A stretch of 63,235 nucleotides of DNA from an uncultured Chitinophagales bacterium (GTDB lineage Bacteria > Bacteroidota > Bacteroidia > Chitinophagales > JABDMM01). The notes beneath the pieces were generated by a model. That model saw only the letters and a program-made list of their open reading frames with translations, was not told where the DNA came from and did not search any database. Where the stretch lies: NCBI GenBank assembly GCA_963991145.1, contig CAXDOZ010000002.1, forward strand, positions 1-63,235. Reading direction: 5' to 3'. The position numbers and the translations under genes are program-made. Below, piece after piece: positions 6,874 to 53,958 of this stretch. Numbering within the stretch: position 1 is the stretch's first letter; the number at the start of each line of letters is the position of its first letter.

Positions 6874-7011
6874 AAGCGAATCTATTTAACAGGTTTTATG
6901 ATTGTATTTGCGTTGTTGCATCTCCTGTTGCTTTAAATTGCCATAGATGCAAGCTTTTCAAAGATAGATAATTTTCAAAGCAGCATAAAGGTCTTGCAAT
7001 GAGATAAAGCC

Positions 7012-7040
7012 TTTGTGTCGATGCCCTTTTATTATATTTG
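7012..7040 (+). promoter_or_regulatory. Candidate Bacteroidota promoter (-33 TTTG, -7 TATATTTG) for the DUF2723 gene
   Basis: TTTG at 7012-7015 and TATATTTG at 7033-7040, with a 17-nt spacer. A short hairpin AGCGCTT/AAGCGCT (7042-7061) lies in the predicted 5' leader. Confidence 0.35.
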
Positions 7041-7074
7041 AGCGCTTTAATCGAAGCGCTAATTCGAGCAATTA

Positions 7075-10000
7075 ATGGAAAATAATTTTAAGCGTCTTAA
7101 CAACATCACCGGCTGGGCCGTTTTCGTGATCGCCCTTATCGTCTATACCCTTACTCTTGAGCCTACTGTAAGCTTCTGGGATTGTGGGGAGTTTATATCT
7201 GGAGCACATAAGCTAGAAGTAGTTCACCCTCCCGGGGCACCCTTCTTTCTTTTGTTAGGTAATGTATTCATTACACTATTCTCTTTTGGGAATGATGCAA
7301 GAGCTGCATGGTCAGTGAATTTTATGTCAGGTCTTTCAACAGCACTGGCTGTTCTGTTCCTCTTTTGGACAATTACGAATCTGGCTAAGCGAATCATTTT
7401 CAAAGACGGCGAGATCACAATGCCAAAGATCCTTGTAGTTCTTTTCGCAGGTATTGTAGGATCATTAGCAAGTACCTTTTCAGATACACAGTGGTTCTCT
7501 GCAGTGGAAGGAGAGGTATATGCGCTGTCTCTGTTCTTTATGTCCTTTGGTGTTTGGGCGATCCTTAAATGGGAAGAGTCCGATGATGAATACCAGGATC
7601 GCTGGTTACTACTGATCGCTTTCTCTTTGGGACTTGCTACAGGAGTTCACCTTCTATCATTACTAGTGGTTCCAATCGTAGCATTGGTTTACTATCTAAA
7701 GAAATACAAGCCAACTATCATTGGTGGATTGATAGCATTCGCTGCAGGTTTTGCCTTTATCCTGATCTTCATGCAGAAGATCATTATCGCGGGTATTCCA
7801 TGGTTCGCTTCAAGATTGGATAGAGTATTTGTAAACTCTATGGGAATGCCATTTAACAGTGGCGCCCTGGTATCGATTTTGATCATTGCTGGTATTGCAG
7901 CATATCTGGTATACTACACTCAAAAGAAAGGGCACTCCGAGTGGAATAAGCTTGTTCTTGCCATTGTCTTCATCCTCATTGGATACTCAACATATATGAT
8001 GGTTCCGATCAGGGCTGAGATCAACCCTCCGATCAACATGAATAAACCTGAGGATCCATTCCGTATGCTTAGCTACCTAAACCGTGAGCAATATGGTGAG
8101 CGCCCTCTTGCATTTGGTCCACAGTACACTGCAAGCAGCAGATGGGATAGAGATCCTAATGTACAGGGTGGAGTGAAAATCACCGGTGCATACACTTATA
8201 AGGTTGGAGATCAGTATGAAGACATTGATGATAAGCTTCAGATCGCATGGTCACCTGAGTCAAAAGTATTCTTCCCAAGAATGGGATTCCCGGGAGATAA
8301 TGACAAGAAGCAAGCCTTCCGTTACTGGATCAAGCCAGGGGCGAAGATCATTGACAGAGCAGGTGGAAATCAGATCATTCAGGAATTACCATATGAAACT
8401 CTGGTTAGTAAATATGGAGATATTAGAAATGCAGCTGAGCAGGAGCTGAAGATCTATAAGCAAAGCTATCCTCAACGTGAACTTGATGTGATCGATAACA
8501 TCTCAAGCGGAGACAACTTCAGTTTCTTTTTCAAGTATCAGGTTGGATATATGTACATGAGATACTTCATGTGGAATTTTGCCGGTCGCCAAAACAATGA
8601 CCAGGGTTATTTCCGGGATGCTGAAGCCAATGGTGGATGGATCTGCGGAATCCCATTCCTCGATAATACCTTGAGCTTCTGGGGACATGCCACATTGCCT
8701 CAAACAGATCTGCCTTCATTCATGGCAGAAAATCCATCTCAGAACAAGTTCTACCTTCTTCCATTAATCTTCGGATTGATTGGCCTGATCTGGATGTTTC
8801 AGAAAGACAAAGAGATCTTTAGCATTGTATTCTTCCTGTTCATTTTCACAGGTGCGCTACAAATCATTTATCACAATCAGCCACCTGTTGAACCGCGTGA
8901 GCGTGATTACGTATTCGTGGGATCTTTCTTCGCCTATGCGATCTGGATCGGATTTGGAGTACTGGCAATCTTCGATCTATTGAAGACCAGATTTAAGCTT
9001 TCTGAAATGCCAGCTGCGGCTGTTGCTTTCGGTATGTGCCTCATTGCTCCTCTACTAATGGGATCTCAAGGTTGGGATGATCACGATCGTAGCCACAAGT
9101 ACACTGCACGCGATTTTGCTTTGAACTACCTGGAGTCTTGTGCTCCAAATGCTATTCTATTTACACAAGGTGATAATGATACCTATCCTCTCTGGTATGC
9201 TACAGAGGTTGAGGGCATTCGCCCTGATGTTCGTGTAGTGAATCTTTCACTTCTTGGAGTGGATTGGTATGCAGATCAATTATTCTACGCTGTGAATGAA
9301 TCACCTGCACTAAAGATGAGTCTGACTCCCGAAGAGCTCTTTGCCACCAGAAGGCAGTATACGAGCTTCTTTGAGGATAAAGCCAAATTCGCCCCGGGCA
9401 AGTACCACAATGCGCAGGACGTAATGGCTTATCTGACTTCAGACAATCAGGCGGATATGCAGTACAACCAGCGTATGGGTAAATATGAAAATGTTGTTCC
9501 TACTGCTAATCTTAGAATTCCTCTTGATGTAAATCGAGTGAAGGAATTAGAAATGGTTTCTCCTGCCGATTATGGAAGGCTGGAAGAGATCAAATGGACT
9601 TTGAATTCAAAGAATCTTACAAAGGCAGAGCTGATCACTTTAGACATCATTGCCAACAACTTCTATGAGCGACCGATCTATTTCTGTACTACAGTAGATT
9701 GGAGAACAGCACTTGGACTTGAGCCATATTTCCAGCAAGAGGGATTAGCATTTAGAATAGTTCCGATCAAATACCAGGCGACTACAAACGACATCGATCA
9801 GCAGACTGGACTTTACTACCCATTCTATGTGAACAGTGAAGCTATGTATGATAAGCTGATGAATGTTTATCAGTGGGGAGGAATGGAAGTTCCTGGTAAC
9901 TACATGGATCCTGAGTCTATGCGTGTTACTTACAACTTCCGTGAGATGTTTGTAAGAGCTGCTTACAAAATGGTAGTTGACGGTGATCTTGAAAAGGCAG

Positions 10001-44000: not shown

Positions 44001-44390
44001 ATGGCTGAAGAGGATAGGGATAAGATTTTAGATCTGCCCGAAAAAGGCAGGTCCAGGCCTCAACGATTTGATCTGTTTATCATGCTCTCACTTGGAATTA
44101 TCCTGGTGGGTTTGTTATTCAAGATCATGCATTGGCCATTTGGCAGTGAGCTTACTGTAATCGGCGCGATAGCGCTCACCATTTCCTATGGATTGCGCTT
44201 TGCACTCTCTCCTCAAAAATCCATGCTGGACCTTTTACGCCTGGTCTTTGGTTCGGCTTTACTTGTTTCCATTATCCTGAATATGACAGGTTTTAGATAC
44301 GGAGATACGTTGATAACATTCGCCATGTGGCTCCTCTTGCCTATCCTAGTTTTGTGGCTGATTTCATACTTTCGACCCAATGACAAATAA
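44001..44390 (+). CDS. Small integral membrane protein (4 predicted TM), unknown function
   Basis: 129-aa ORF between thyA and folA that overlaps the folA start by 11 nt. Contains the LFKIMHWPFG motif seen in small Bacteroidota membrane proteins. Confidence 0.6.
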   Translation: MAEEDRDKILDLPEKGRSRPQRFDLFIMLSLGIILVGLLFKIMHWPFGSELTVIGAIALTISYGLRFALSPQKSMLDLLRLVFGSALLVSIILNMTGFRYGDTLITFAMWLLLPILVLWLISYFRPNDK

Positions 44391-44904: not shown

Positions 44905-44958
44905 CTGAATCAATAGCTCATTTCCTTCGTAGATTAAACCTAGTTAATTGAAGAGCGT

Positions 44959-44976
44959 CCAATGATCGATCATTGG
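44959..44976. promoter_or_regulatory. Perfect 18-bp palindrome CCAATGATCGATCATTGG, candidate operator upstream of the five-gene operon
   Basis: The sequence is exactly self-complementary. It ends 17 nt before the ATG at 44994. Confidence 0.4.
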
Positions 44977-44993: not shown

Positions 44994-45851
44994 ATGAAGC
45001 AGATCTTACCCCTCTTTCTATTAATTTTTGCCTTTGCCTGTTCCAAGGATACGAACCTGATTCCCGGCAATACTGCTCCCCCGGATAATACGGTTGAGGA
45101 TCAGACCATCATCAACTACATCAATAAATCTTACATCAGTCTGCTAAGCAGAGAGCCTAACTCACAAGAGCTTCAAACTGCATTTGACGCCCTACGGGCG
45201 GATGATTTTTCAGACACATCCAGAGTTGAGTTCCTGCAGACTGTCATCGATGACCCGGCTTACCTGGATAACGTCTACGCGAATGCCAGAGAAGAACTTC
45301 TGAGAGGTGCAGACACAACTGATATATACATTCAATGGAATGGCTTAATGCAAGCCTTGAACGATCCAAACCTGGCTCCATTCTATCCTCTCATTCAGGA
45401 AGAGATAGATCGAATGGAGGATTTGATGGATGTTCCAGAAGATCTTGCCTCGGGCGCAATTGATGTTACTGAGATGTATAGGAGAGTGGTTAATAATTCC
45501 CTCTATGACGATTTCAATATGGGAACAGAGAATTTCATTATCTCCACTTTCCAATTCTTTTTACACCGATCTCCAACAGGCACTGAGTTAGAAGAGTGCA
45601 CCAAGATCGTAGACGATAATGAAGGTGTGATGTTCCTGCAAACAGGAGAGTCCAAAGATGATTATCTGGACATCTTCTTTGCCTCGGATGGATATTACGA
45701 GGGGCAGGTGATCTACCTCTATGAGAAGTATTTATTTAGGACGCCTCTTTCAGAGGAGATGAGTTTTTACGCACAGATCTATAAGGCAAATAATAATTAT
45801 CCTGAACTGCAGACTTTGATTCTGAGTCAGGATGAATTTGCTGGATTATAA
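44994..45851 (+). CDS. Lipoprotein with three DUF4214-like repeats, unknown function (operon gene 1)
   Basis: The ATG at 44994 gives MKQILPLFLLIFAFAC|SKD (lipobox). Repeated motifs are YISLLSREPNSQEL, FFLHRSPTGTEL and YLFRTPLSEEM. Confidence 0.7.
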   Translation: MKQILPLFLLIFAFACSKDTNLIPGNTAPPDNTVEDQTIINYINKSYISLLSREPNSQELQTAFDALRADDFSDTSRVEFLQTVIDDPAYLDNVYANAREELLRGADTTDIYIQWNGLMQALNDPNLAPFYPLIQEEIDRMEDLMDVPEDLASGAIDVTEMYRRVVNNSLYDDFNMGTENFIISTFQFFLHRSPTGTELEECTKIVDDNEGVMFLQTGESKDDYLDIFFASDGYYEGQVIYLYEKYLFRTPLSEEMSFYAQIYKANNNYPELQTLILSQDEFAGL

Positions 45852-45852
45852 A

Positions 45853-46347
45853 ATGAATGGCATGAGAAATTACCTGATCATTTTTGCTGCAATAGCCCTT
45901 AGCATGAGTGCCTGTAAGAAAGACTCGACTCCAGTATTCGGTGTCAATGATGTAGATGTAAGCTCGAATACCGGCGATAAGGATAACCTGAAGTCGGCAA
46001 CTGAATTCATTTCCATTGCCTACGCCGACATCTTTCAGACTACAGTGACTTCTCAAACTCTTGATGCTTTGACCGTCCCTTATGTAGCATTCGGAGATAA
46101 TACAGTGATTGAGGATATGATCATCAGGAACTTCCTGAACGAGCCAACTGCCATTATCCCAAGCGAGCAAGATATGAGAGCAGATATTCCTGCTTTCATC
46201 AATGAGGCCTATAGCAGGTTTTATAATCGTGAGCCCGATGCCTTTGAGGCATGGCAATGGGAAGAGTATATAAATAGTGATCAGGATCTCACGGTTGAGG
46301 TGATCTATTATGCATTTATGACTTCGGAGGAGTACAGGTACTATTAA
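45853..46347 (+). CDS. Lipoprotein with a DUF4214-like motif, unknown function (operon gene 2)
   Basis: The ATG at 45853, 1 nt after the gene 1 stop, gives MNGMRNYLIIFAAIALSMSAC|KKD. Carries the motif YSRFYNREPDAFEAW. Confidence 0.7.
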   Translation: MNGMRNYLIIFAAIALSMSACKKDSTPVFGVNDVDVSSNTGDKDNLKSATEFISIAYADIFQTTVTSQTLDALTVPYVAFGDNTVIEDMIIRNFLNEPTAIIPSEQDMRADIPAFINEAYSRFYNREPDAFEAWQWEEYINSDQDLTVEVIYYAFMTSEEYRYY

Positions 46348-46357
46348 TCGACAGCTT

Positions 46358-47656
46358 ATGAAAAGAAGGACATTCATACGAAAAGCGGGAATGACAGCAG
46401 CGGGTGTTGCACTTTTTCCTACGATCCTTCCGGCAGGGACGGTCTTTGCAAAAACGGGAGCGAGGAAAGTAAACCATGTGGTATTCTGCCTATTCGCCGG
46501 AGGAGTGAGAAACCTGGAATCTGTTCAAAAAATAGATGGTAACCTGATGCCTTATACACTGAATGGATCTGAGAGCATTAGTCCTGATATAATTGGGGGA
46601 ATGTCTAGCCTGCCAATGAATAATGGCAGTACACTTCAAAGTGAGTCCACCTTCTTCAAAGAGTTTAGATACGCGCAAGGGCCAACCGGTCACTACAATG
46701 CTCATGGCACAGCGATCACGGGAAACTATGTTTTGGAGAATGTCCAGATCAAGGAACCACCAAAGAATCCAACCATTTTCGAATTGTATCGCAAGCATAA
46801 CTCATCCAGCAATTCAGCATTGAATGCCTGGTGGGTGACTGATTCTCTGGGACCTTATCCTGCTTTGAATTATTCAAGTTATCCCGGTTATGGTTCTGTG
46901 TATGGAGCGAATATGATCCAGCCTCTTTCGGTCTTTAATCCAAGATCTTACCAGGTTCTTGGAGATCCTTTGAACTTCCACAGCACTGATGAAGAGAAAG
47001 CAGCGATGCTTAGAGAGTTTCTGGATGGACAGTTCAAAGCTCCGGAGCAAGCCCTTGCGACTGGTATCATTAATACGGCTGAGGATGCTGATCTTCTGGA
47101 TCAGTGGATCCAAACCATGTTGCAGGAATCTAATTCAGGACTTCATGCAAATCCATGGGGCGTGCAGCCGATGAATAGCGATATGTACAATGCCTTTTAC
47201 GCTACGCGGATATTGAATGCATTTGAGCCAGAGCTTCTAGTTGTAAATATGACTGGTATTGATGTTTGCCACACGAATTTTACTCAATACTGCAATAACA
47301 TCAGAAGAGCAGATTATGCTCTGGGTAAGCTCTGGGATTTCATTCAGAGTCATCCGGTTCTTGCAAATGACACATTGCTGATTGTTGCGCCTGAACACGG
47401 CCGAAACCTCAATCCTAACACACTTCAGGATCAGTATGGAAGATATGCGCTTGACCACACCAGCGATGAAATGTCTCGTGAGATATTCTGCATGGTGGCG
47501 GGTCCTTCAAGTGTTGTAAACCAAAATAATGTGATCAGCCAGGTAACAGGAGAGTCGATTGATGTTGCTCCTACTATTGCAAATGCATTGGGATTTGATG
47601 TAGATATTCCGGGAGGCTTACTTCCTGGGAGAGTTTTAACCGAAGCCTTTATCTAG
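46358..47656 (+). CDS. Tat-exported DUF1501-family protein (sulfatase/alkaline-phosphatase fold) (operon gene 3)
   Basis: 432 aa with twin-arginine signal MKRRTFIRKAG. DUF1501-like blocks are VVFCLFAGGVRN, LLIVAPEHGRN, ALDHTSDE...MVAGPS and DVAPTIANALGFD. Confidence 0.75.
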   Translation: MKRRTFIRKAGMTAAGVALFPTILPAGTVFAKTGARKVNHVVFCLFAGGVRNLESVQKIDGNLMPYTLNGSESISPDIIGGMSSLPMNNGSTLQSESTFFKEFRYAQGPTGHYNAHGTAITGNYVLENVQIKEPPKNPTIFELYRKHNSSSNSALNAWWVTDSLGPYPALNYSSYPGYGSVYGANMIQPLSVFNPRSYQVLGDPLNFHSTDEEKAAMLREFLDGQFKAPEQALATGIINTAEDADLLDQWIQTMLQESNSGLHANPWGVQPMNSDMYNAFYATRILNAFEPELLVVNMTGIDVCHTNFTQYCNNIRRADYALGKLWDFIQSHPVLANDTLLIVAPEHGRNLNPNTLQDQYGRYALDHTSDEMSREIFCMVAGPSSVVNQNNVISQVTGESIDVAPTIANALGFDVDIPGGLLPGRVLTEAFI

Positions 47657-47657
47657 T

Positions 47658-48602
47658 ATGAGATTGAGAAGAACAAAATTTCCGGCACTATTGGCTTTGG
47701 CAGTGATCTTCTGGGTTGGACTGGAGAGCTGCGAAGACGATAATCCAATCACAAATAATCCATACGATGATGTCGACTATGGAGATACCAGTCAGGTTGT
47801 GATTCCAGTTGACTCAAGCTCGATCACGGGAATACACAAATTTATCCTATCTACAAAATGTGCCAATCCCGGTTGCCATGACGGATCTTTTGAGCCCGAC
47901 TTCAGATCGGTACAAAGTTCTTATTCAACAATGGTCTATCACAAGATCATTAAGAATAATGCAGCTGAAGATTTCACTTATCGGGTTGTGCCCGGAGATA
48001 CAGCAATGTCGGTTCTACACGAAAGAATCACAAACTGCTGTTTCGTCAATGTTGATGATATTATGCCACAGGACAACATCGGGCAGGGACTGCCCCAAAG
48101 CGACAGAGACCTGATAGCAAAATGGATTCTTGATGGGGCAAAAGACTGGAGTGGTCAAACTCCAACTCAGCCAAGCACAAAAGCAAGTGTAGAATATTAC
48201 CTGGCTTTTAATACCACTTATACAACCCAATATACCGCGACAAGGGTCGACAATCTATTCTACAATCCATTCATTGCTCCTCAGAATACTGATGTTGTTT
48301 TTGCTGTCTTCCCTGATGATGATGAGACTGCGATTCAAAACCTCCAGATAAACAGATTGGAATTCTCTTATGATGAGAATGACTTCTCAAGTCCGATCCT
48401 AAGTGTGAATACATCGTATCTGTCATTCATGAATAATGAGTTTTGGATGTCGACTGTGAATACTGGTCAATTCCTTACTGATACAACAGTATTTATGAGG
48501 TATACGGTAAGCGATGGCTCGCAGCCTCAGCCCACTATTGCTCCTAAACCGGATGCACCATTCCAGTTTAAAACCTATTGGTCATTTATTATCAGACCCT
48601 AA
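47658..48602 (+). CDS. Lipoprotein with a Planctomycete-cytochrome-c-like (PSCyt-like) module carrying CX4CH (operon gene 4)
   Basis: 314 aa with signal/lipobox VGLESC|EDD. Motifs in the PSCyt order are CANPGCHDG ... YRVVPGDTAMSVLHERI ... IMPQDNIGQGLPQSDRDLIAKWILDGA. Confidence 0.65.
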   Translation: MRLRRTKFPALLALAVIFWVGLESCEDDNPITNNPYDDVDYGDTSQVVIPVDSSSITGIHKFILSTKCANPGCHDGSFEPDFRSVQSSYSTMVYHKIIKNNAAEDFTYRVVPGDTAMSVLHERITNCCFVNVDDIMPQDNIGQGLPQSDRDLIAKWILDGAKDWSGQTPTQPSTKASVEYYLAFNTTYTTQYTATRVDNLFYNPFIAPQNTDVVFAVFPDDDETAIQNLQINRLEFSYDENDFSSPILSVNTSYLSFMNNEFWMSTVNTGQFLTDTTVFMRYTVSDGSQPQPTIAPKPDAPFQFKTYWSFIIRP

Positions 48603-48604
48603 GT

Positions 48605-49045
48605 ATGAAGTTCAGAGTTTCTCTTTTCGCCATTTTGTTGGCTGTTGGATTAGTTGGCTGTGAAAAGGATGGCAGTATCTCAGTCATTCCTGAGATTGCT
48701 TTCGTGTCTATCGATCCGGTATCGGCTCAGCAATTCGACGCTGTTGAAATAGTGATCTCTTATCAGGATGGTGATGGCGATCTTGGAGAGAACGTAGCAG
48801 GAGTGGATAATCTCTTCGTTACGGATCTTCGCAATGGAGTGATATATGCCTATCGCATTCAGGAGCTAGCTCCTCAGGGTTCTACCATTGCTATTCAGGG
48901 TAACCTGAATGTTCAGATCAACTCAGTAAGTGTTATCGATCCAATGGCGACCGCAGAGCAGGTGCAGTATTCTGTTTATGTGGTTGATAGGGCAGGTAAC
49001 CAGAGTAATGTGGTTACAACTGATGAGATCACAGTTACAAAGTAA
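48605..49045 (+). CDS. Small lipoprotein, beta-rich (Ig-like?), unknown function (operon gene 5)
   Basis: The ATG at 48605 gives MKFRVSLFAILLAVGLVGC|EKD, 146 aa. Contains an acidic DGDGDLGEN loop. Confidence 0.65.
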   Translation: MKFRVSLFAILLAVGLVGCEKDGSISVIPEIAFVSIDPVSAQQFDAVEIVISYQDGDGDLGENVAGVDNLFVTDLRNGVIYAYRIQELAPQGSTIAIQGNLNVQINSVSVIDPMATAEQVQYSVYVVDRAGNQSNVVTTDEITVTK

Positions 49046-51227: not shown

Positions 51228-51332
51228 AGGTGGTAATTTGGTATGGCTTTTGTGTTAAAATGTGCGGAACAAAGTTAGAAATTTAATTGTTCCACTATTG
51301 AGATGTATCTTAGAGAAGCTAAAAGAAATCAT

Positions 51333-52409
51333 ATGAAAGTTGGTAGAATTTTGAGTTCGGTTTTGATGGTTGGATTAGTAATTTTCAGCAGTGTTGCTTC
51401 AGCGCAATACGATGATGTTTACTGGGATCCATTTGAAGAAGCAGCTACTCCGGCAACACCGGTAAATAACAGTACCTCAAATGCTAGTGAGTATGACTAC
51501 GCAACACCTGGTACTTATGCTACTTATCTTCCATCAGAAGATTTCGCACTTGACAACTATCACGATTACTCATACTCTTCTAAGCTCAGAAGATTCTATG
51601 ATCCGGTTGATGGAGTAGATTATTACGATGATTACTACACTGATTATTCATCGTTTGATAATTCTGCAGACCTTGCCGGTACAAGCATTTATTCCAGCTA
51701 CAATCCATACCAACCATGGGATTATAGTTACTTCAACATTTGGACAAACACAGCATATGTGAACGCTGTATACAATCCGGTAAGCAATGTGGCTTATAAT
51801 CCACTTAATGATCCATTCTTAAATTCAACTACTGCTAATTACAACCAAGGATTTAACGATGGTTATAATACTGCACTTTACGGAGGTGCTGGATTCGGAG
51901 CACCAGTTGGTGGATTTGGTGGAGCACCTGTAGGTGGTTTTGGCGGAGCCGGAGGAGGTTTCGGTAATGCATATTACTGCCCTCCAACAGCATACTTTAA
52001 TGCACCTACTACCAACCCAACTAATACCACAAACACTATAAATAACTCTCCAAATTATACTCCAAGAGGAGGAGGAAATAATCCAAGTATTCCTACAGGT
52101 GGTTATACAAATACTGCTAGCTCTGGAACTAACCCTTATGCTAAGCCAAGAGAGGTTACTCCTAACTATAAGTCTGTAAATAACACTGGAAGCACTTCTG
52201 GTTCAGGATCAGGATATCAGTATTCTAGTCCAAGCAGTAATACTTATACGCCAAGCTACAGTGGAGGAAATAACAATACATACTCTGCTCCAAGCAGCAG
52301 ACCAAGTTATTCTGCTCCTTCTTACTCTGCTCCTAGCTATTCTGCTCCAAGCTACAGTGCTCCAAGAAGCGGCGGAGGTGGTGGAGGAGTTATCCGTTCG
52401 CCTAGATAA
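51333..52409 (+). CDS. Secreted low-complexity Tyr/Asn/Ser/Pro/Gly-rich repeat protein, unknown function
   Basis: The ATG at 51333 gives signal peptide MKVGRILSSVLMVGLVIFSSVASA|Q. An acidic Tyr/Asp-rich N-part is followed by GGFGGAPV repeats, an Asn/Thr/Pro-rich region and four SYSAP repeats. Confidence 0.7.
   Translation: MKVGRILSSVLMVGLVIFSSVASAQYDDVYWDPFEEAATPATPVNNSTSNASEYDYATPGTYATYLPSEDFALDNYHDYSYSSKLRRFYDPVDGVDYYDDYYTDYSSFDNSADLAGTSIYSSYNPYQPWDYSYFNIWTNTAYVNAVYNPVSNVAYNPLNDPFLNSTTANYNQGFNDGYNTALYGGAGFGAPVGGFGGAPVGGFGGAGGGFGNAYYCPPTAYFNAPTTNPTNTTNTINNSPNYTPRGGGNNPSIPTGGYTNTASSGTNPYAKPREVTPNYKSVNNTGSTSGSGSGYQYSSPSSNTYTPSYSGGNNNTYSAPSSRPSYSAPSYSAPSYSAPSYSAPRSGGGGGGVIRSPR
51882..51965 (+). 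repeat. In-frame Gly-rich repeat GGAGFGAPVGGFGGAPVGGFGGAGGGFG
   Basis: Read directly from the sequence. Units of GGFGGAPV are encoded with varying synonymous codons. Confidence 0.8.
52305..52364 (+). repeat. Four tandem 15-nt in-frame repeats encoding SYSAP
   Basis: The units are agttattctgctcct / tcttactctgctcct / agctattctgctcca / agctacagtgctcca. The peptide is identical but the codons differ. Confidence 0.85.
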
Positions 52410-52431: not shown

Positions 52432-53958
52432 ATGATGCGCAAACTCAGCATTTTACTGCTGTTATTGGGATTGTATGTCTCAAGCTCTGCTCAGATCTAT
52501 GTAGTTGATGCCTTGCGATTTATGCAAAGTGAGGTTGTAGGGACCGCTAGAACAATGGGAGCAGCGGGAGCTTTTTCGGCAGTAGGCGGAGACCCTGGAG
52601 CAGCCTACTACAATCCAGCTACATTAGGAATGATGAGAGGCAGTCAGGCTTTTATCACTCCTGCAATGAGGATTGGTACAGAAAGCTTTAACTACCTGAC
52701 CAACAATGGGAAGAGTACGAATGTAGCTTTCCCTTTTGGTTACTCAGGTGCAGTTGTTTCCTCGACAACAATTGATGGTTGGAGAGATTTTAAGTCCAGA
52801 AAGAATTATGCACTGACTTTTGGTCGCGTGGCAAACTTCAATCAGCAACGCGCTTTCAATGGACTTAATCCAAATACCTCTATTACCTATCAGTATGTTG
52901 ATGAGTTTAATGCAGTTGGAGCTGACCAAGCAAATGCTATATTAAACAACCCCAATATCAACCCTTATAATGAGTTTTCTTTTGAAGCTGTACTAGCATG
53001 GCTTGGGTATTTAGCAAACTATGATTCTTCCTTTGGACAATTCTTTTCTCCGGTTGATGCCCCGGTATTTCAAAATGGCCAATACAAGACGAGTGGAGGA
53101 ATCTATGAGATTGGTTTTACTTCCTCTGGTACTTATATGAATGAAAGGCTCTACCTGGGTTTTGGTCTGGCAGTTCCAATATTGAATTTTTCTTCTACCA
53201 CCACATTCACCGAGGATGATTATCAGGATGGCAACCTATCCTTTGATCAAATGAACCTTGTCACTGACTACACTACAAGTGGTGCAGGTTTCAATTTTAA
53301 ACTTGGGATCCTATATCGACCGATGTCTTTATTCAGAGTTGGGGCATACATTCACAGTCCGTCGTTCTTTGGTTTAAATGAGAGTTATCAAAGCAGAATG
53401 ACCTCAAGGGTGAATCTGCCCGAAGCTCCTCAGGATGCTTTTGCAAATGAAAGTCCTGAGCAACAGTTCAATTATTCATTCAATACACCCTGGAAATTTG
53501 GGGTGAGTACTGCCTTCTTCATCAAGAAGATCGCTTTCATATCTGCTGATTATGAGATGCAGGACTTTGGATCAGGAAAGTACAGTTTCGGACAGGGCTT
53601 TCAATCTTTTAATCAGGTCATAAATGATCAGATGCGTCAAACTTACAGGTTCAATCATATGATTCGATTAGGAGCTGAAGCAGCTTATAAGAAGATGCGA
53701 TTTAGAGGGGGAGTAATCTACCAGACGAGTCCATTAGACAAGAGTATTGGAGTCCAAAAGCAAGGTGACCAAAGCAAATTGACCTTTACCACGGGATTTG
53801 GTTTGAGCTGGAAAAAGTTTGGATTAGACTTCGCTTATTTAGTGACCCGATGGGATGAATTTTATCAACCGTATACAGTTGTCTTTCTAGATGCTCCTAC
53901 TGCTACGTTCTCACACATCAACAGAACCATCGCCATTACGGCGACTGTTAAATTCTAG
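52432..53958 (+). CDS. Outer-membrane beta-barrel protein, FadL/PorV-like superfamily
   Basis: 508 aa with signal peptide ending SSSAQ, an N-terminal TARTMGAAGAFSAVGGDPGAAYYNPATLG motif (FadL/PorV-type hatch), alternating beta-strand pattern and C-terminal TATVKF. Confidence 0.7.
   Translation: MMRKLSILLLLLGLYVSSSAQIYVVDALRFMQSEVVGTARTMGAAGAFSAVGGDPGAAYYNPATLGMMRGSQAFITPAMRIGTESFNYLTNNGKSTNVAFPFGYSGAVVSSTTIDGWRDFKSRKNYALTFGRVANFNQQRAFNGLNPNTSITYQYVDEFNAVGADQANAILNNPNINPYNEFSFEAVLAWLGYLANYDSSFGQFFSPVDAPVFQNGQYKTSGGIYEIGFTSSGTYMNERLYLGFGLAVPILNFSSTTTFTEDDYQDGNLSFDQMNLVTDYTTSGAGFNFKLGILYRPMSLFRVGAYIHSPSFFGLNESYQSRMTSRVNLPEAPQDAFANESPEQQFNYSFNTPWKFGVSTAFFIKKIAFISADYEMQDFGSGKYSFGQGFQSFNQVINDQMRQTYRFNHMIRLGAEAAYKKMRFRGGVIYQTSPLDKSIGVQKQGDQSKLTFTTGFGLSWKKFGLDFAYLVTRWDEFYQPYTVVFLDAPTATFSHINRTIAITATVKF

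Follow-up and report, generated by a model that had tools for sequence, protein, structure and literature searches.

Five adjacent genes that encode nothing but exported proteins raise the question of whether they form a single system and what that system might do. Such a set, here called G1 to G5, lies on the + strand at positions 44994-49045 of a 63,235-nucleotide stretch of DNA from an uncultured Chitinophagales bacterium (contig CAXDOZ010000002.1 of GenBank assembly GCA_963991145.1), the whole of which we refer to as the window. G1, G2, G4 and G5 encode small lipoproteins and G3 encodes a protein with a twin-arginine translocation (Tat)-type leader. Comparisons at the sequence level lead us to propose, with a probability of roughly 0.55, that the five products constitute one extracytoplasmic module, a miniaturised and split relative of the gene pairs in which DUF1501 is accompanied by PSCyt/DUF1549/DUF1553 or by DUF1800 proteins.

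Organization and conservation of the five-gene set

The layout described in a first-pass annotation of this DNA was confirmed by the open reading frame (ORF) calls and the sequence, from which the genes were numbered. All five are co-directional (Table 1) and separated by spacers of 1, 10, 1 and 2 nt. The four lipoprotein signals quoted there are also present, each after a hydrophobic leader (FAFAC/SKD in G1, SMSAC/KKD in G2, GLESC/EDD in G4 and LVGC/EKD in G5, the slash following the Cys), and the lipidated Cys is invariant in the family alignments of these four proteins. None of the five window proteins matched a Pfam or NCBIfam family above threshold.

When one genome per GTDB species was scanned, a relative of G3 was found in 418 species. 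The best 80 of these 418, which were examined here, are all metagenome-assembled Bacteroidota (Chitinophagales, Flavobacteriales, Sphingobacteriales, Cytophagales and unclassified Bacteroidia), and 63 loci could be evaluated, having 1.5 kb or more on either side. G1 to G5 occur in the same order and on the same strand in 62 of these 63 species-level loci. This arrangement is far beyond chance and, since the order is kept although the flanks differ, the module is inherited as a unit. Co-conservation, which had been set as a check on the first-pass proposal of an operon-like set of exported proteins outside known families, was therefore found. G3 is the most conserved gene (median identity 57%), and the other four show between 42 and 46%. 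The flanks vary between genomes: the commonest neighbour, an M20-type peptidase according to Pfam (in locus L002), was found in 15 of 47 loci, and clustering of all flanking ORFs revealed no sixth conserved gene. A SusC/SusD pair was absent from the window flanks and from the recurrent neighbour clusters, and no SusC/SusD, transporter or Pho-type gene was co-conserved with G1 to G5. In a Cyclobacteriaceae metagenome-assembled genome (L001/L016) an IS1595-family transposase lies between G2 and G3 (L001 6918-7805) and G5 is called as two short ORFs of 69 and 81 aa (L001 10228-10679), so that this copy of the module may be decaying.

An exhaustive profile search with the G3 alignment yielded 941 representatives at E<=1e-3, and the context of several diverged full-length relatives was examined. 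One of them, P0279 (483 aa, E=1e-53 to the G3 profile), sits in a high-GC contig, L084, within an array of 301-180-483-310-182 aa that has the gene order of the window and in which all five Bacteroidota hidden Markov models (HMMs) match ORFs. We denote its first and third products G1' and G3'; two members of the G1' family (A7) were named Kofleriaceae by NCBI. Another relative, P0276, lies on a JGI contig in an array of 278+-187-452-326-137 aa, which was judged by gene sizes only. In L089 the order is G1-G3-G2-G4, with no G5 match found there, and in L088 it is G2-G3-G4-G5, with a G4 of 172 aa that comprises the N-domain only. The G5 HMM matched ORFs of L084 and L088 with E=3e-25 and 1e-38. 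Based on these four arrays, the gene association survives reordering and reaches beyond Bacteroidota.

It could still be argued that the five genes are merely co-transcribed and encode functionally independent exported proteins, as G2 and G5 have no informative homologues and the link between the five proteins is one of gene neighbourhood. However, the complete set stays in order in 62 of 63 loci although the flanks are unrelated, and the co-occurrence persists in other lineages and through reordering. In addition, the G3 and G4 families are similar in size in a collection of 5.8 billion proteins (1257 and 1480 clusters, almost all of them unnamed or called 'hypothetical protein'), and a scattered occurrence of one or two genes is contradicted for the Bacteroidota set. 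We regard independence as extremely improbable.

G3 has a predicted alkaline phosphatase-superfamily fold and borders DUF1501

The placement of G3 in the sulfatase/alkaline phosphatase superfamily, proposed in the first pass, agrees with both its AlphaFold2 (AF2) model and the Foldseek search made with it. The model (predicted local distance difference test, pLDDT, 83.6; predicted template modelling score, pTM, 0.82) gave 459 PDB matches at E<=1e-3, and the 50 listed were all enzymes of this superfamily. Among those listed were sulfatases, LtaS-type proteins, NPP and phosphonate monoester hydrolases, with E-values down to 1e-11, template modelling (TM) scores of about 0.45 and identities of 11-16%. 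G3 is thus predicted to have this fold, and single-sequence and profile searches of the PDB retrieved nothing significant.

Membership in DUF1501 (PF07394), in contrast, was not sustained. The first-pass annotation had named a failure to hit DUF1501 profiles as refuting its proposal, and formally such a failure is what was found: the window protein showed no DUF1501 match at E<=1 in Pfam, and the family consensus and the best member scored 14.8 and 23.8 bits against a cut-off of 27. The window protein gave sub-threshold Pfam matches to Phosphodiest and Sulfatase only, and nothing usable in NCBIfam. Marginal Pfam matches among 29 family members were to Phosphodiest (20), Sulfatase (12), Metalloenzyme (6) and DUF1501 (5). 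The G3 profile does find two proteins, P0297 (E=2e-38) and P0288 (E=2e-44), that score 28.6 and 28.0 bits with DUF1501, just above the cut-off, but other relatives at a similar distance match Sulfatase or Metalloenzyme and not DUF1501. The distant relatives that this profile retrieves are as 'dark' as G3 itself. By these scores G3 belongs to a clade without a Pfam model that borders DUF1501 and is not a Pfam member of it. A tblastn search of a plasmid collection with G3' and G1' of L084 and with P0297 yielded nothing, or no more than distant genes described as 'sulfatase-like' or 'alkaline phosphatase family'.

The Arg pair of the twin-arginine signal ascribed to G3 is present in the window protein (MKRRTFIRKAG, with KRRTFIRK), but the Arg pair is not strictly conserved, being RR in 67 and RK in 52 of 120 homologues. 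Among the Tat models, TIGR01409 matched below its cut-off (E=0.31) and Pfam TAT_signal matched six of the 29 members. G3 is not a lipoprotein, because no Cys occurs in its first 38 residues nor in those of any of the 120 homologues. Residues 21-36 (46418-46465), which follow the hydrophobic core of the leader and read PYILPSGRLFAATGxR, hardly vary within the family. A cleaved signal peptide would not usually be so conserved, and the G3 leader may stay on the protein or serve a second function.

The active site of G3 is apparently remodelled

Most of the distant G3 relatives keep H-V-V...G-G-x-R-x-x-(E/D) at strand 1, H112, D302-x-x-H305, P-(E/D)-x-G-R (345-349) and D366-H367. The C-terminal metal-ligand motifs of the superfamily (DxxH and (D/E)H) are present, with D302/H305, E346/H347 and D366/H367 conserved, and in an alignment with a sulfatase-family structure E346-H347-G falls on its D-H-G. 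The metal-binding Asp at the end of strand 1, on the other hand, was not found: strand 40-46 is followed by A47-G48-G49, and the Gly pair is invariant in the family and kept in most of the distant relatives that align over this region. As for the nucleophile, T110 is invariant in Bacteroidota G3 but it is Pro in the L084 orthologue and Pro, Ala, Gly or Val in many relatives, whereas H112, at the start of helix 112-121, is kept in all but one of the aligned relatives. It appears from these motifs that the strand-1 Asp has been replaced by Gly and that a His occupies the nucleophile position. DUF1501 itself has 'GG', 'SHF', 'EFGR' and 'DH' motifs, which would be in keeping with such a site.

Distant relatives of G3 (371 aa) that retain the canonical strand-1 Asp are encoded directly behind SusC/SusD pairs on plasmids of Hymenobacter sp. 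NBH84 (L085) and Fulvitalea axinellae (pFA3, L086). They carry TLDGMRWQE and FSYPGYNEILTG, which are canonical, and G3 carries FAGGVRNLE and GHYNAHGTAITG. The Hymenobacter locus also contains genes for a PhnZ-type HD oxygenase, a HAD hydrolase and a TIGR03364 oxidoreductase, and looks like an organophosphorus-scavenging locus. Profile alignment of these relatives with G3 was significant for the C-terminal half only and not for the N-terminal half, and so the mapping of H112 and G48 is one that we infer.

These features bear on a serious rival, in which the five genes would encode a nutrient-scavenging hydrolase complex. G3 would be a phosphodiesterase, phosphatase or sulfatase with T110 as its nucleophile, as in NPP, and the lipoproteins would resemble SusE/F in presenting organic phosphate or sulfate esters at the cell surface. 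Such a role would fit the superfamily fold, the best Pfam matches (Phosphodiest and Sulfatase), the invariance of T110 in the Bacteroidota family at the N-terminus of helix 112-121, the lipoprotein tails discussed below and the position of the plasmid relatives behind SusC/SusD, in Hymenobacter beside phosphonate-degradation genes. Yet the strand-1 Asp of those relatives is Gly in G3 and their match is confined to its C-terminal half; T110 is Pro in the L084 module and variable elsewhere, whereas H112 is kept in nearly all relatives; no SusC/SusD, transporter or Pho-type gene accompanies the set; and a cytochrome-like subunit, as G4 may be, would have no obvious role in hydrolysis. We consider a classical hydrolase unlikely, although it is the alternative that has to be taken most seriously.

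G1 and G2 are linker-like helical lipoproteins

The DUF4214-like repeats reported for G1 and G2 do exist, but the motif as first written (Y-x2-[LF]-x-R-x-P-x3-E) is one residue short and matches nothing. In the form [YF]-x2-[LFY]-x2-R-x-P-x3-E it occurs three times in G1, once in G2 and not at all in G3 to G5. Both window proteins stay below the DUF4214 (PF13946) cut-off of 23.2 bits, with 21.1 for G1 and 20.6 for G2 (E=4.9e-4). The G1 family consensus passes at 26.4 bits and 31 of 32 G1 homologues match (best E=4e-8); the L084 counterpart of G2 matches with E=1.4e-4. G1 also matches the phycobilisome linker domain weakly, its consensus touches PBS_linker, PSD1/DUF1553 and PSCyt2/DUF1549, and its family profile matches the phycobilisome linker ApcH (E=5e-5) as well as LR linkers in solved phycobilisomes. 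G1 and G2 thus share with DUF4214 and the phycobilisome linkers (PF00427) the same helix-turn motif; however, they are lipoproteins of a non-photosynthetic phylum without phycobilisome context. The likeness lies in a repeated helical motif that probably serves protein-protein docking.

The relationship of G1 to the partners of DUF1501 was seen through G1'. For PSCyt2/DUF1549 (PF07583, cut-off 29.8 bits) the window G1 gave no match, its consensus 17.2 bits and two of 32 members weak matches; for DUF1800 (PF08811, cut-off 26.1 bits) neither the window protein nor the consensus matched. The G1' family, in turn, passes PSCyt2/DUF1549 with its N-terminus (L084 G1' 31.4 and consensus 37.4 bits), and precomputed PF07583 matches exist for the majority of its 68 members. 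One member, P0426, also passes DUF1800 (27.3 bits, profile positions 203-292 of 419; consensus 16.3), and the C-terminus of the G1' consensus touches DUF1800, DUF4214, PBS_linker and PSD1. HHalign aligned G1 over its full length with G1' (99.7%, E=3e-27, 282 columns). Since G1 aligns to G1' and G1' passes PSCyt2/DUF1549, profile comparison indicates that G1 is a small homologue of the DUF1549/DUF1800-type partners of DUF1501. The suggestion that such partner modules are spread over small lipoproteins was therefore borne out for G1, by way of a G1' family that passes DUF1549/PSCyt2 and has one member that passes DUF1800. Profile comparison revealed no homology beyond the signal peptide between G1 and G2 or between G2 and G1', and a PDB search with the G2 profile gave nothing significant. 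The Myxococcota-type G1' (L084 3522-4424) contains an insertion with six invariant Cys (C115, C125, C128, C136, C139 and C141) that is absent from Bacteroidota G1.

G4 is a putative cytochrome-c-like lipoprotein

The invariant positions of the G4 N-domain are C68, C73, H74, G76, F78-E-P-D81, M136-P137 and W156-I157-x-x-G160-A161. The C-x4-CH motif was found in all 74 loci and all 120 protein clusters inspected (194 of 194 Bacteroidota sequences). The Cys spacing is six in L084 and five in L089 and is never two, so that the haem-attachment motif CxxCH was not found. By contrast, the distal Met ligand and the C-terminal amphipathic helix of class I c-type cytochromes were: M136-P137 and W156-I157-x-x-G160-A161 align to MPxG...WIxEGA. 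The partner in this comparison was a 137-aa Novosphingobium protein with a CATCH sequence and a Cytochrome_CBB3 match. The N-domain aligns weakly to this protein and to FoxE, and in HHalign to the L084 counterpart with 97.1%. The best PSCyt1 (PF07635) score, that of the L089 G4, was 14.3 bits (cut-off 22), and the NCBIfam model of the SO2930 dihaem cytochrome gave E=0.011 and 14.9 bits against 313. In the AF2 model pLDDT exceeds 90 in the C-domain and falls below 50 in the loops at the Cys, His and Met motifs, a drop that a cofactor absent from the model would explain. Foldseek found only generic beta-sandwich matches (carbohydrate-binding or Ig-like, E>1e-3) and the N-domain was too poorly modelled to match; sequence and profile searches of the PDB with G4 gave nothing significant. 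From its conserved C-xn-CH (n=4-6) and Met-Pro, the N-domain is best described as cytochrome-c-like, and a beta-sandwich follows it. Of the PSCyt-like module reported for this gene, then, a cytochrome-c-like domain stands but the PSCyt1 match does not, and the motif is C-x4-CH instead of CxxCH.

The same residues could be read without haem. The Cys pair would then form a disulfide or a Cu, Zn or Fe site, the module would handle or sense a metal or an envelope component with no electron transfer, and G3 would be a metal-dependent non-redox enzyme or a binding protein. This would agree with a Cys spacing that is never the canonical two, with the failure of Bacteroidota G4 proteins to match any Pfam cytochrome family, with an extra conserved Cys-Cys pair (C127-C128) in most of them and with the six invariant Cys of the L084-type G1' family. 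But the His right after the second Cys, the Met-Pro and the 'WIxxGA' helix follow the pattern of class-I-type c cytochromes, aligning with the CATCH protein and FoxE, and the AF2 confidence falls exactly at the motif loops. A non-haem G4 seems very unlikely to us.

G5 and the lipoprotein tails

G5 is an Ig-like, beta-rich lipoprotein of 146 aa. Besides the loop given in Table 1, an alignment with 32 homologues that include the L084 counterpart showed a conserved C-terminal D-R-A-G-N-x-S strand. No significant Pfam or PDB sequence match was found, profile search included.

In the G1, G2, G4 and G5 families the lipidated Cys is followed by x-K-(D/E) and further acidic residues. In Bacteroidota, lipoproteins bearing a K-(D/E)2 export signal are sent to the cell surface, and K-D is a weak form of that tail (Lauber et al. 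2016, PMC5080379). Three of the window tails have K-D only and that of G4 is E-D-D.

Relationship to known systems

The five genes had been put forward as the best candidate for an undescribed system, a claim that is too strong, as systems of this kind have been described. DUF1501 with PSCyt1, PSCyt2 and PSD1 forms a conserved module of unknown function in the Planctomycetes-Verrucomicrobia-Chlamydiae (PVC) superphylum, with Tat motifs on DUF1501, signal peptides and a possible part in electron transfer (Kamneva et al. 2012, PMC3542564). Genes encoding PSCyt2 adjoin a family of unknown genes, and the function of the PSCyt genes and their neighbours is not known (He et al. 2017, PMC5615132). 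In the literature searched we found no paper describing the five-gene set and no functional characterisation of DUF1501, DUF1800, DUF1549, DUF1553, DUF4214 or PSCyt.

Like G1 to G5, the PVC modules, with PSCyt2 (DUF1549) and PSD1 (DUF1553), place an alkaline phosphatase-clan enzyme with a Tat-type leader beside secreted DUF1549-type helical and cytochrome-c-type modules. Carbohydrate-binding or Ig-type beta-sandwich domains are often attached, and the arrangement is strongly conserved and of unknown function. They are found in Planctomycetes, Verrucomicrobia and Lentisphaerae, whereas G1 to G5 are hosted by Bacteroidota and recur in a second version on Myxococcota-type contigs. In the PVC modules the partner functions are combined in single PSCyt1/PSCyt2/PSD1 proteins; here they would be carried by four small lipoproteins (285, 164, 314 and 146 aa), G3 and G4 do not reach the DUF1501 and PSCyt1 thresholds, and C-x4-CH takes the place of CxxCH as the haem-like motif.

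Pairs of DUF1501 and DUF1800 are common, and DUF1800 proteins are single and larger. The resemblance of G1 to G5 to these pairs consists in an alkaline phosphatase-clan enzyme with a Tat-type leader and an all-helical partner, and in the match of the C-terminal half of G1', the homologue of G1, to DUF1800. Unlike DUF1800, which has a profile of 419 positions, G1 is short and lipidated and is accompanied by G2, G4 and G5. With the NPP and sulfatase families G3 shares the predicted alpha/beta fold, D-x-x-H, (D/E)-H-G and, in Bacteroidota, a Thr at the start of the nucleophile helix. It differs from them in its low identity and TM score, in the Gly-Gly that replaces the strand-1 Asp and in that the residue kept across the wider clade is His112 and not Ser, Thr or Cys.

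A possible mechanism

If G1 to G5 are a single extracytoplasmic module, G3 would be its catalytic subunit, exported folded and probably metal-bound. Its metal site would be remodelled, with Gly-Gly for the strand-1 Asp and an invariant His at or beside the position of the Ser, Thr or formylglycine nucleophile. It retains the DxxH, (E/D)xGR and DH motifs and is probably no classical covalent phosphatase or sulfatase. G1 and G2 would be membrane-anchored helical scaffolds or adaptors for G3, as is presumed for DUF1800 and DUF1549 with DUF1501. G4 would pass electrons through a covalently bound haem, or hold the substrate with its N-domain and beta-sandwich, and G5 may be an accessory binding or spacer subunit. 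The most likely substrate would be a group on an envelope-associated or external polymer.

Several observations weigh against this proposal. G3 scores below the DUF1501 cut-off and as well or better against Phosphodiest and Sulfatase, and its 'DUF1501-like' label is owed to intermediate sequences and motifs. The mapping of H112 and G48 comes from motif comparison and secondary structure, the N-terminal profile alignment not being significant. The links of G4 to cytochromes are weak (HHalign 73%), and the window G4, its consensus and four other homologues had no Pfam cytochrome match, PSCyt1 included. Outside the module, no significant relatives of G2 or G5 were found. The K-(D/E) tails resemble the surface-export signal, and lipoproteins exposed at the surface would be separated from a periplasmic G3. 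Finally, in the Cytophagales locus L055 G3 occurs alone (7001-8299, 54% identity), adjoining nusA and rimP, and none of G1, G2, G4 and G5 lies within 7 kb of it in either direction.

A more specific version of the single-module proposal is that the G3 clade has dropped covalent phospho- or sulfo-transfer for metal-centred redox or other non-hydrolytic chemistry, wired to a C-xn-CH haem in G4 and docked on G1 and G2. We offer it as a speculation that is quite unlikely to be right as it stands.

Flanking genes and upstream elements

The window carries thyA, a small membrane protein gene and folA upstream of the set, and downstream of it, in convergent orientation, a 258-aa gene without known identity and proS; given these neighbours, the flanks offer no hint of function. 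Further flanking genes encode an MMPL-family protein and a proline dehydrogenase. The membrane protein between thyA and folA (129 aa, 44001-44390) overlaps the folA start and has a marginal match to the GldL N-terminal domain (23.7 bits, cut-off 24). Two other products of the window are without a Pfam match: a secreted 368-aa low-complexity protein (51303-52409), rich in Y, N, S, G and P and with SAPSY repeats at its end, and a 508-aa protein (52432-53958) with a signal peptide and a C-terminal Phe that may be an outer-membrane barrel.

A candidate extracytoplasmic function (ECF)-sigma-type promoter was read from the sequence, its AAACC core beginning 58 nt 5' of the G1 start codon. The pattern AAAC[CT]-N15-17-[CT]GTC was found upstream of G1 in 7 of 64 distinct loci, compared with 0.47 in mononucleotide shuffles and none on the opposite strand. 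The other loci, with (T)TAAAC[CT]-N15-17-[CT]GTC, are L061, L074, L060, L016, L026 and L028, and the TTAAACCTT portion recurs by itself in further loci. We take this candidate as a lead only. A perfect 18-bp palindrome, CCAATGATCGATCATTGG, that could be an operator or an RNA hairpin lies between folA and G1, 18 nt 5' of the G1 start codon, and no comparable palindrome was found upstream of G1 in the other loci. A scan for sigma-70 promoters and terminators gave background levels.

Table 1. Coordinates of the G1-G5 genes and of their motifs, domains and upstream elements, numbered from the first nucleotide of the window
Feature	Position	Strand	Description
ECF-sigma-type promoter, candidate	44934-44959	+	TTAAACC, 15 nt, CGTC
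Palindrome	44959-44976	.	perfect, 18 bp
G1	44994-45851	+	285-aa lipoprotein (Cys16), all-helical; predicted DUF1549/DUF1800-like partner protein
DUF4214/phycobilisome-linker-like motifs of G1	45132-45170, 45549-45587, 45720-45758	+	pattern match
G2	45853-46347	+	164-aa lipoprotein (Cys21), helical
DUF4214-like motif of G2	46210-46248	+	one clear copy; plus one degenerate copy
G3	46358-47656	+	432 aa, Tat-type leader, predicted alkaline phosphatase-superfamily fold
G48-G49-x-R51-x-x-E54	46499-46519	+	conserved G3 motif
T110-G-H112...H116	46685-46705	+	conserved G3 motif
D302-x-x-H305	47261-47272	+	conserved G3 motif
E346-H-G-R349	47393-47404	+	conserved G3 motif
D366-H367	47453-47458	+	conserved G3 motif
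G4	47658-48602	+	314-aa lipoprotein (Cys25); putative cytochrome-c-like N-domain and beta-sandwich C-domain
G4 N-domain	~47811-48146	+	putative cytochrome-c-like
C68-x4-C73-H74 of G4	47859-47879	+	invariant columns
M136-P137 of G4	48063-48068	+	invariant columns
G4 C-domain	~48186-48596	+	beta-sandwich
G5	48605-49045	+	146-aa lipoprotein (Cys19), beta-rich, Ig-like
Y-x-D-G-D-G-D-L-G-E-N loop of G5	48761-48793	+	conserved

Significance

The function of DUF1501 with its PSCyt/DUF1549/DUF1553 or DUF1800 partners, which occur in many duplicates in PVC genomes, has been open since 2004-2012 (PMC3542564). With G1 to G5, at least 418 species-level genomes have a compact version of five proteins in single copy, in which every presumed function has a small protein to itself. 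This should greatly ease expression, mutagenesis and the mapping of interactions, and the set would be a tractable minimal model. All five families are without Pfam and NCBIfam models and could be defined from the alignments built in this analysis. As G3 seems to have lost both the canonical Asp and the canonical nucleophile, screening for phosphatase or sulfatase activity may be the wrong approach. If G3 were non-hydrolytic and worked with a haem-bearing G4, the five genes would represent the entire DUF1501-DUF1800/PSCyt superfamily in its minimal form, and they would reveal the role of the highly duplicated PVC modules.

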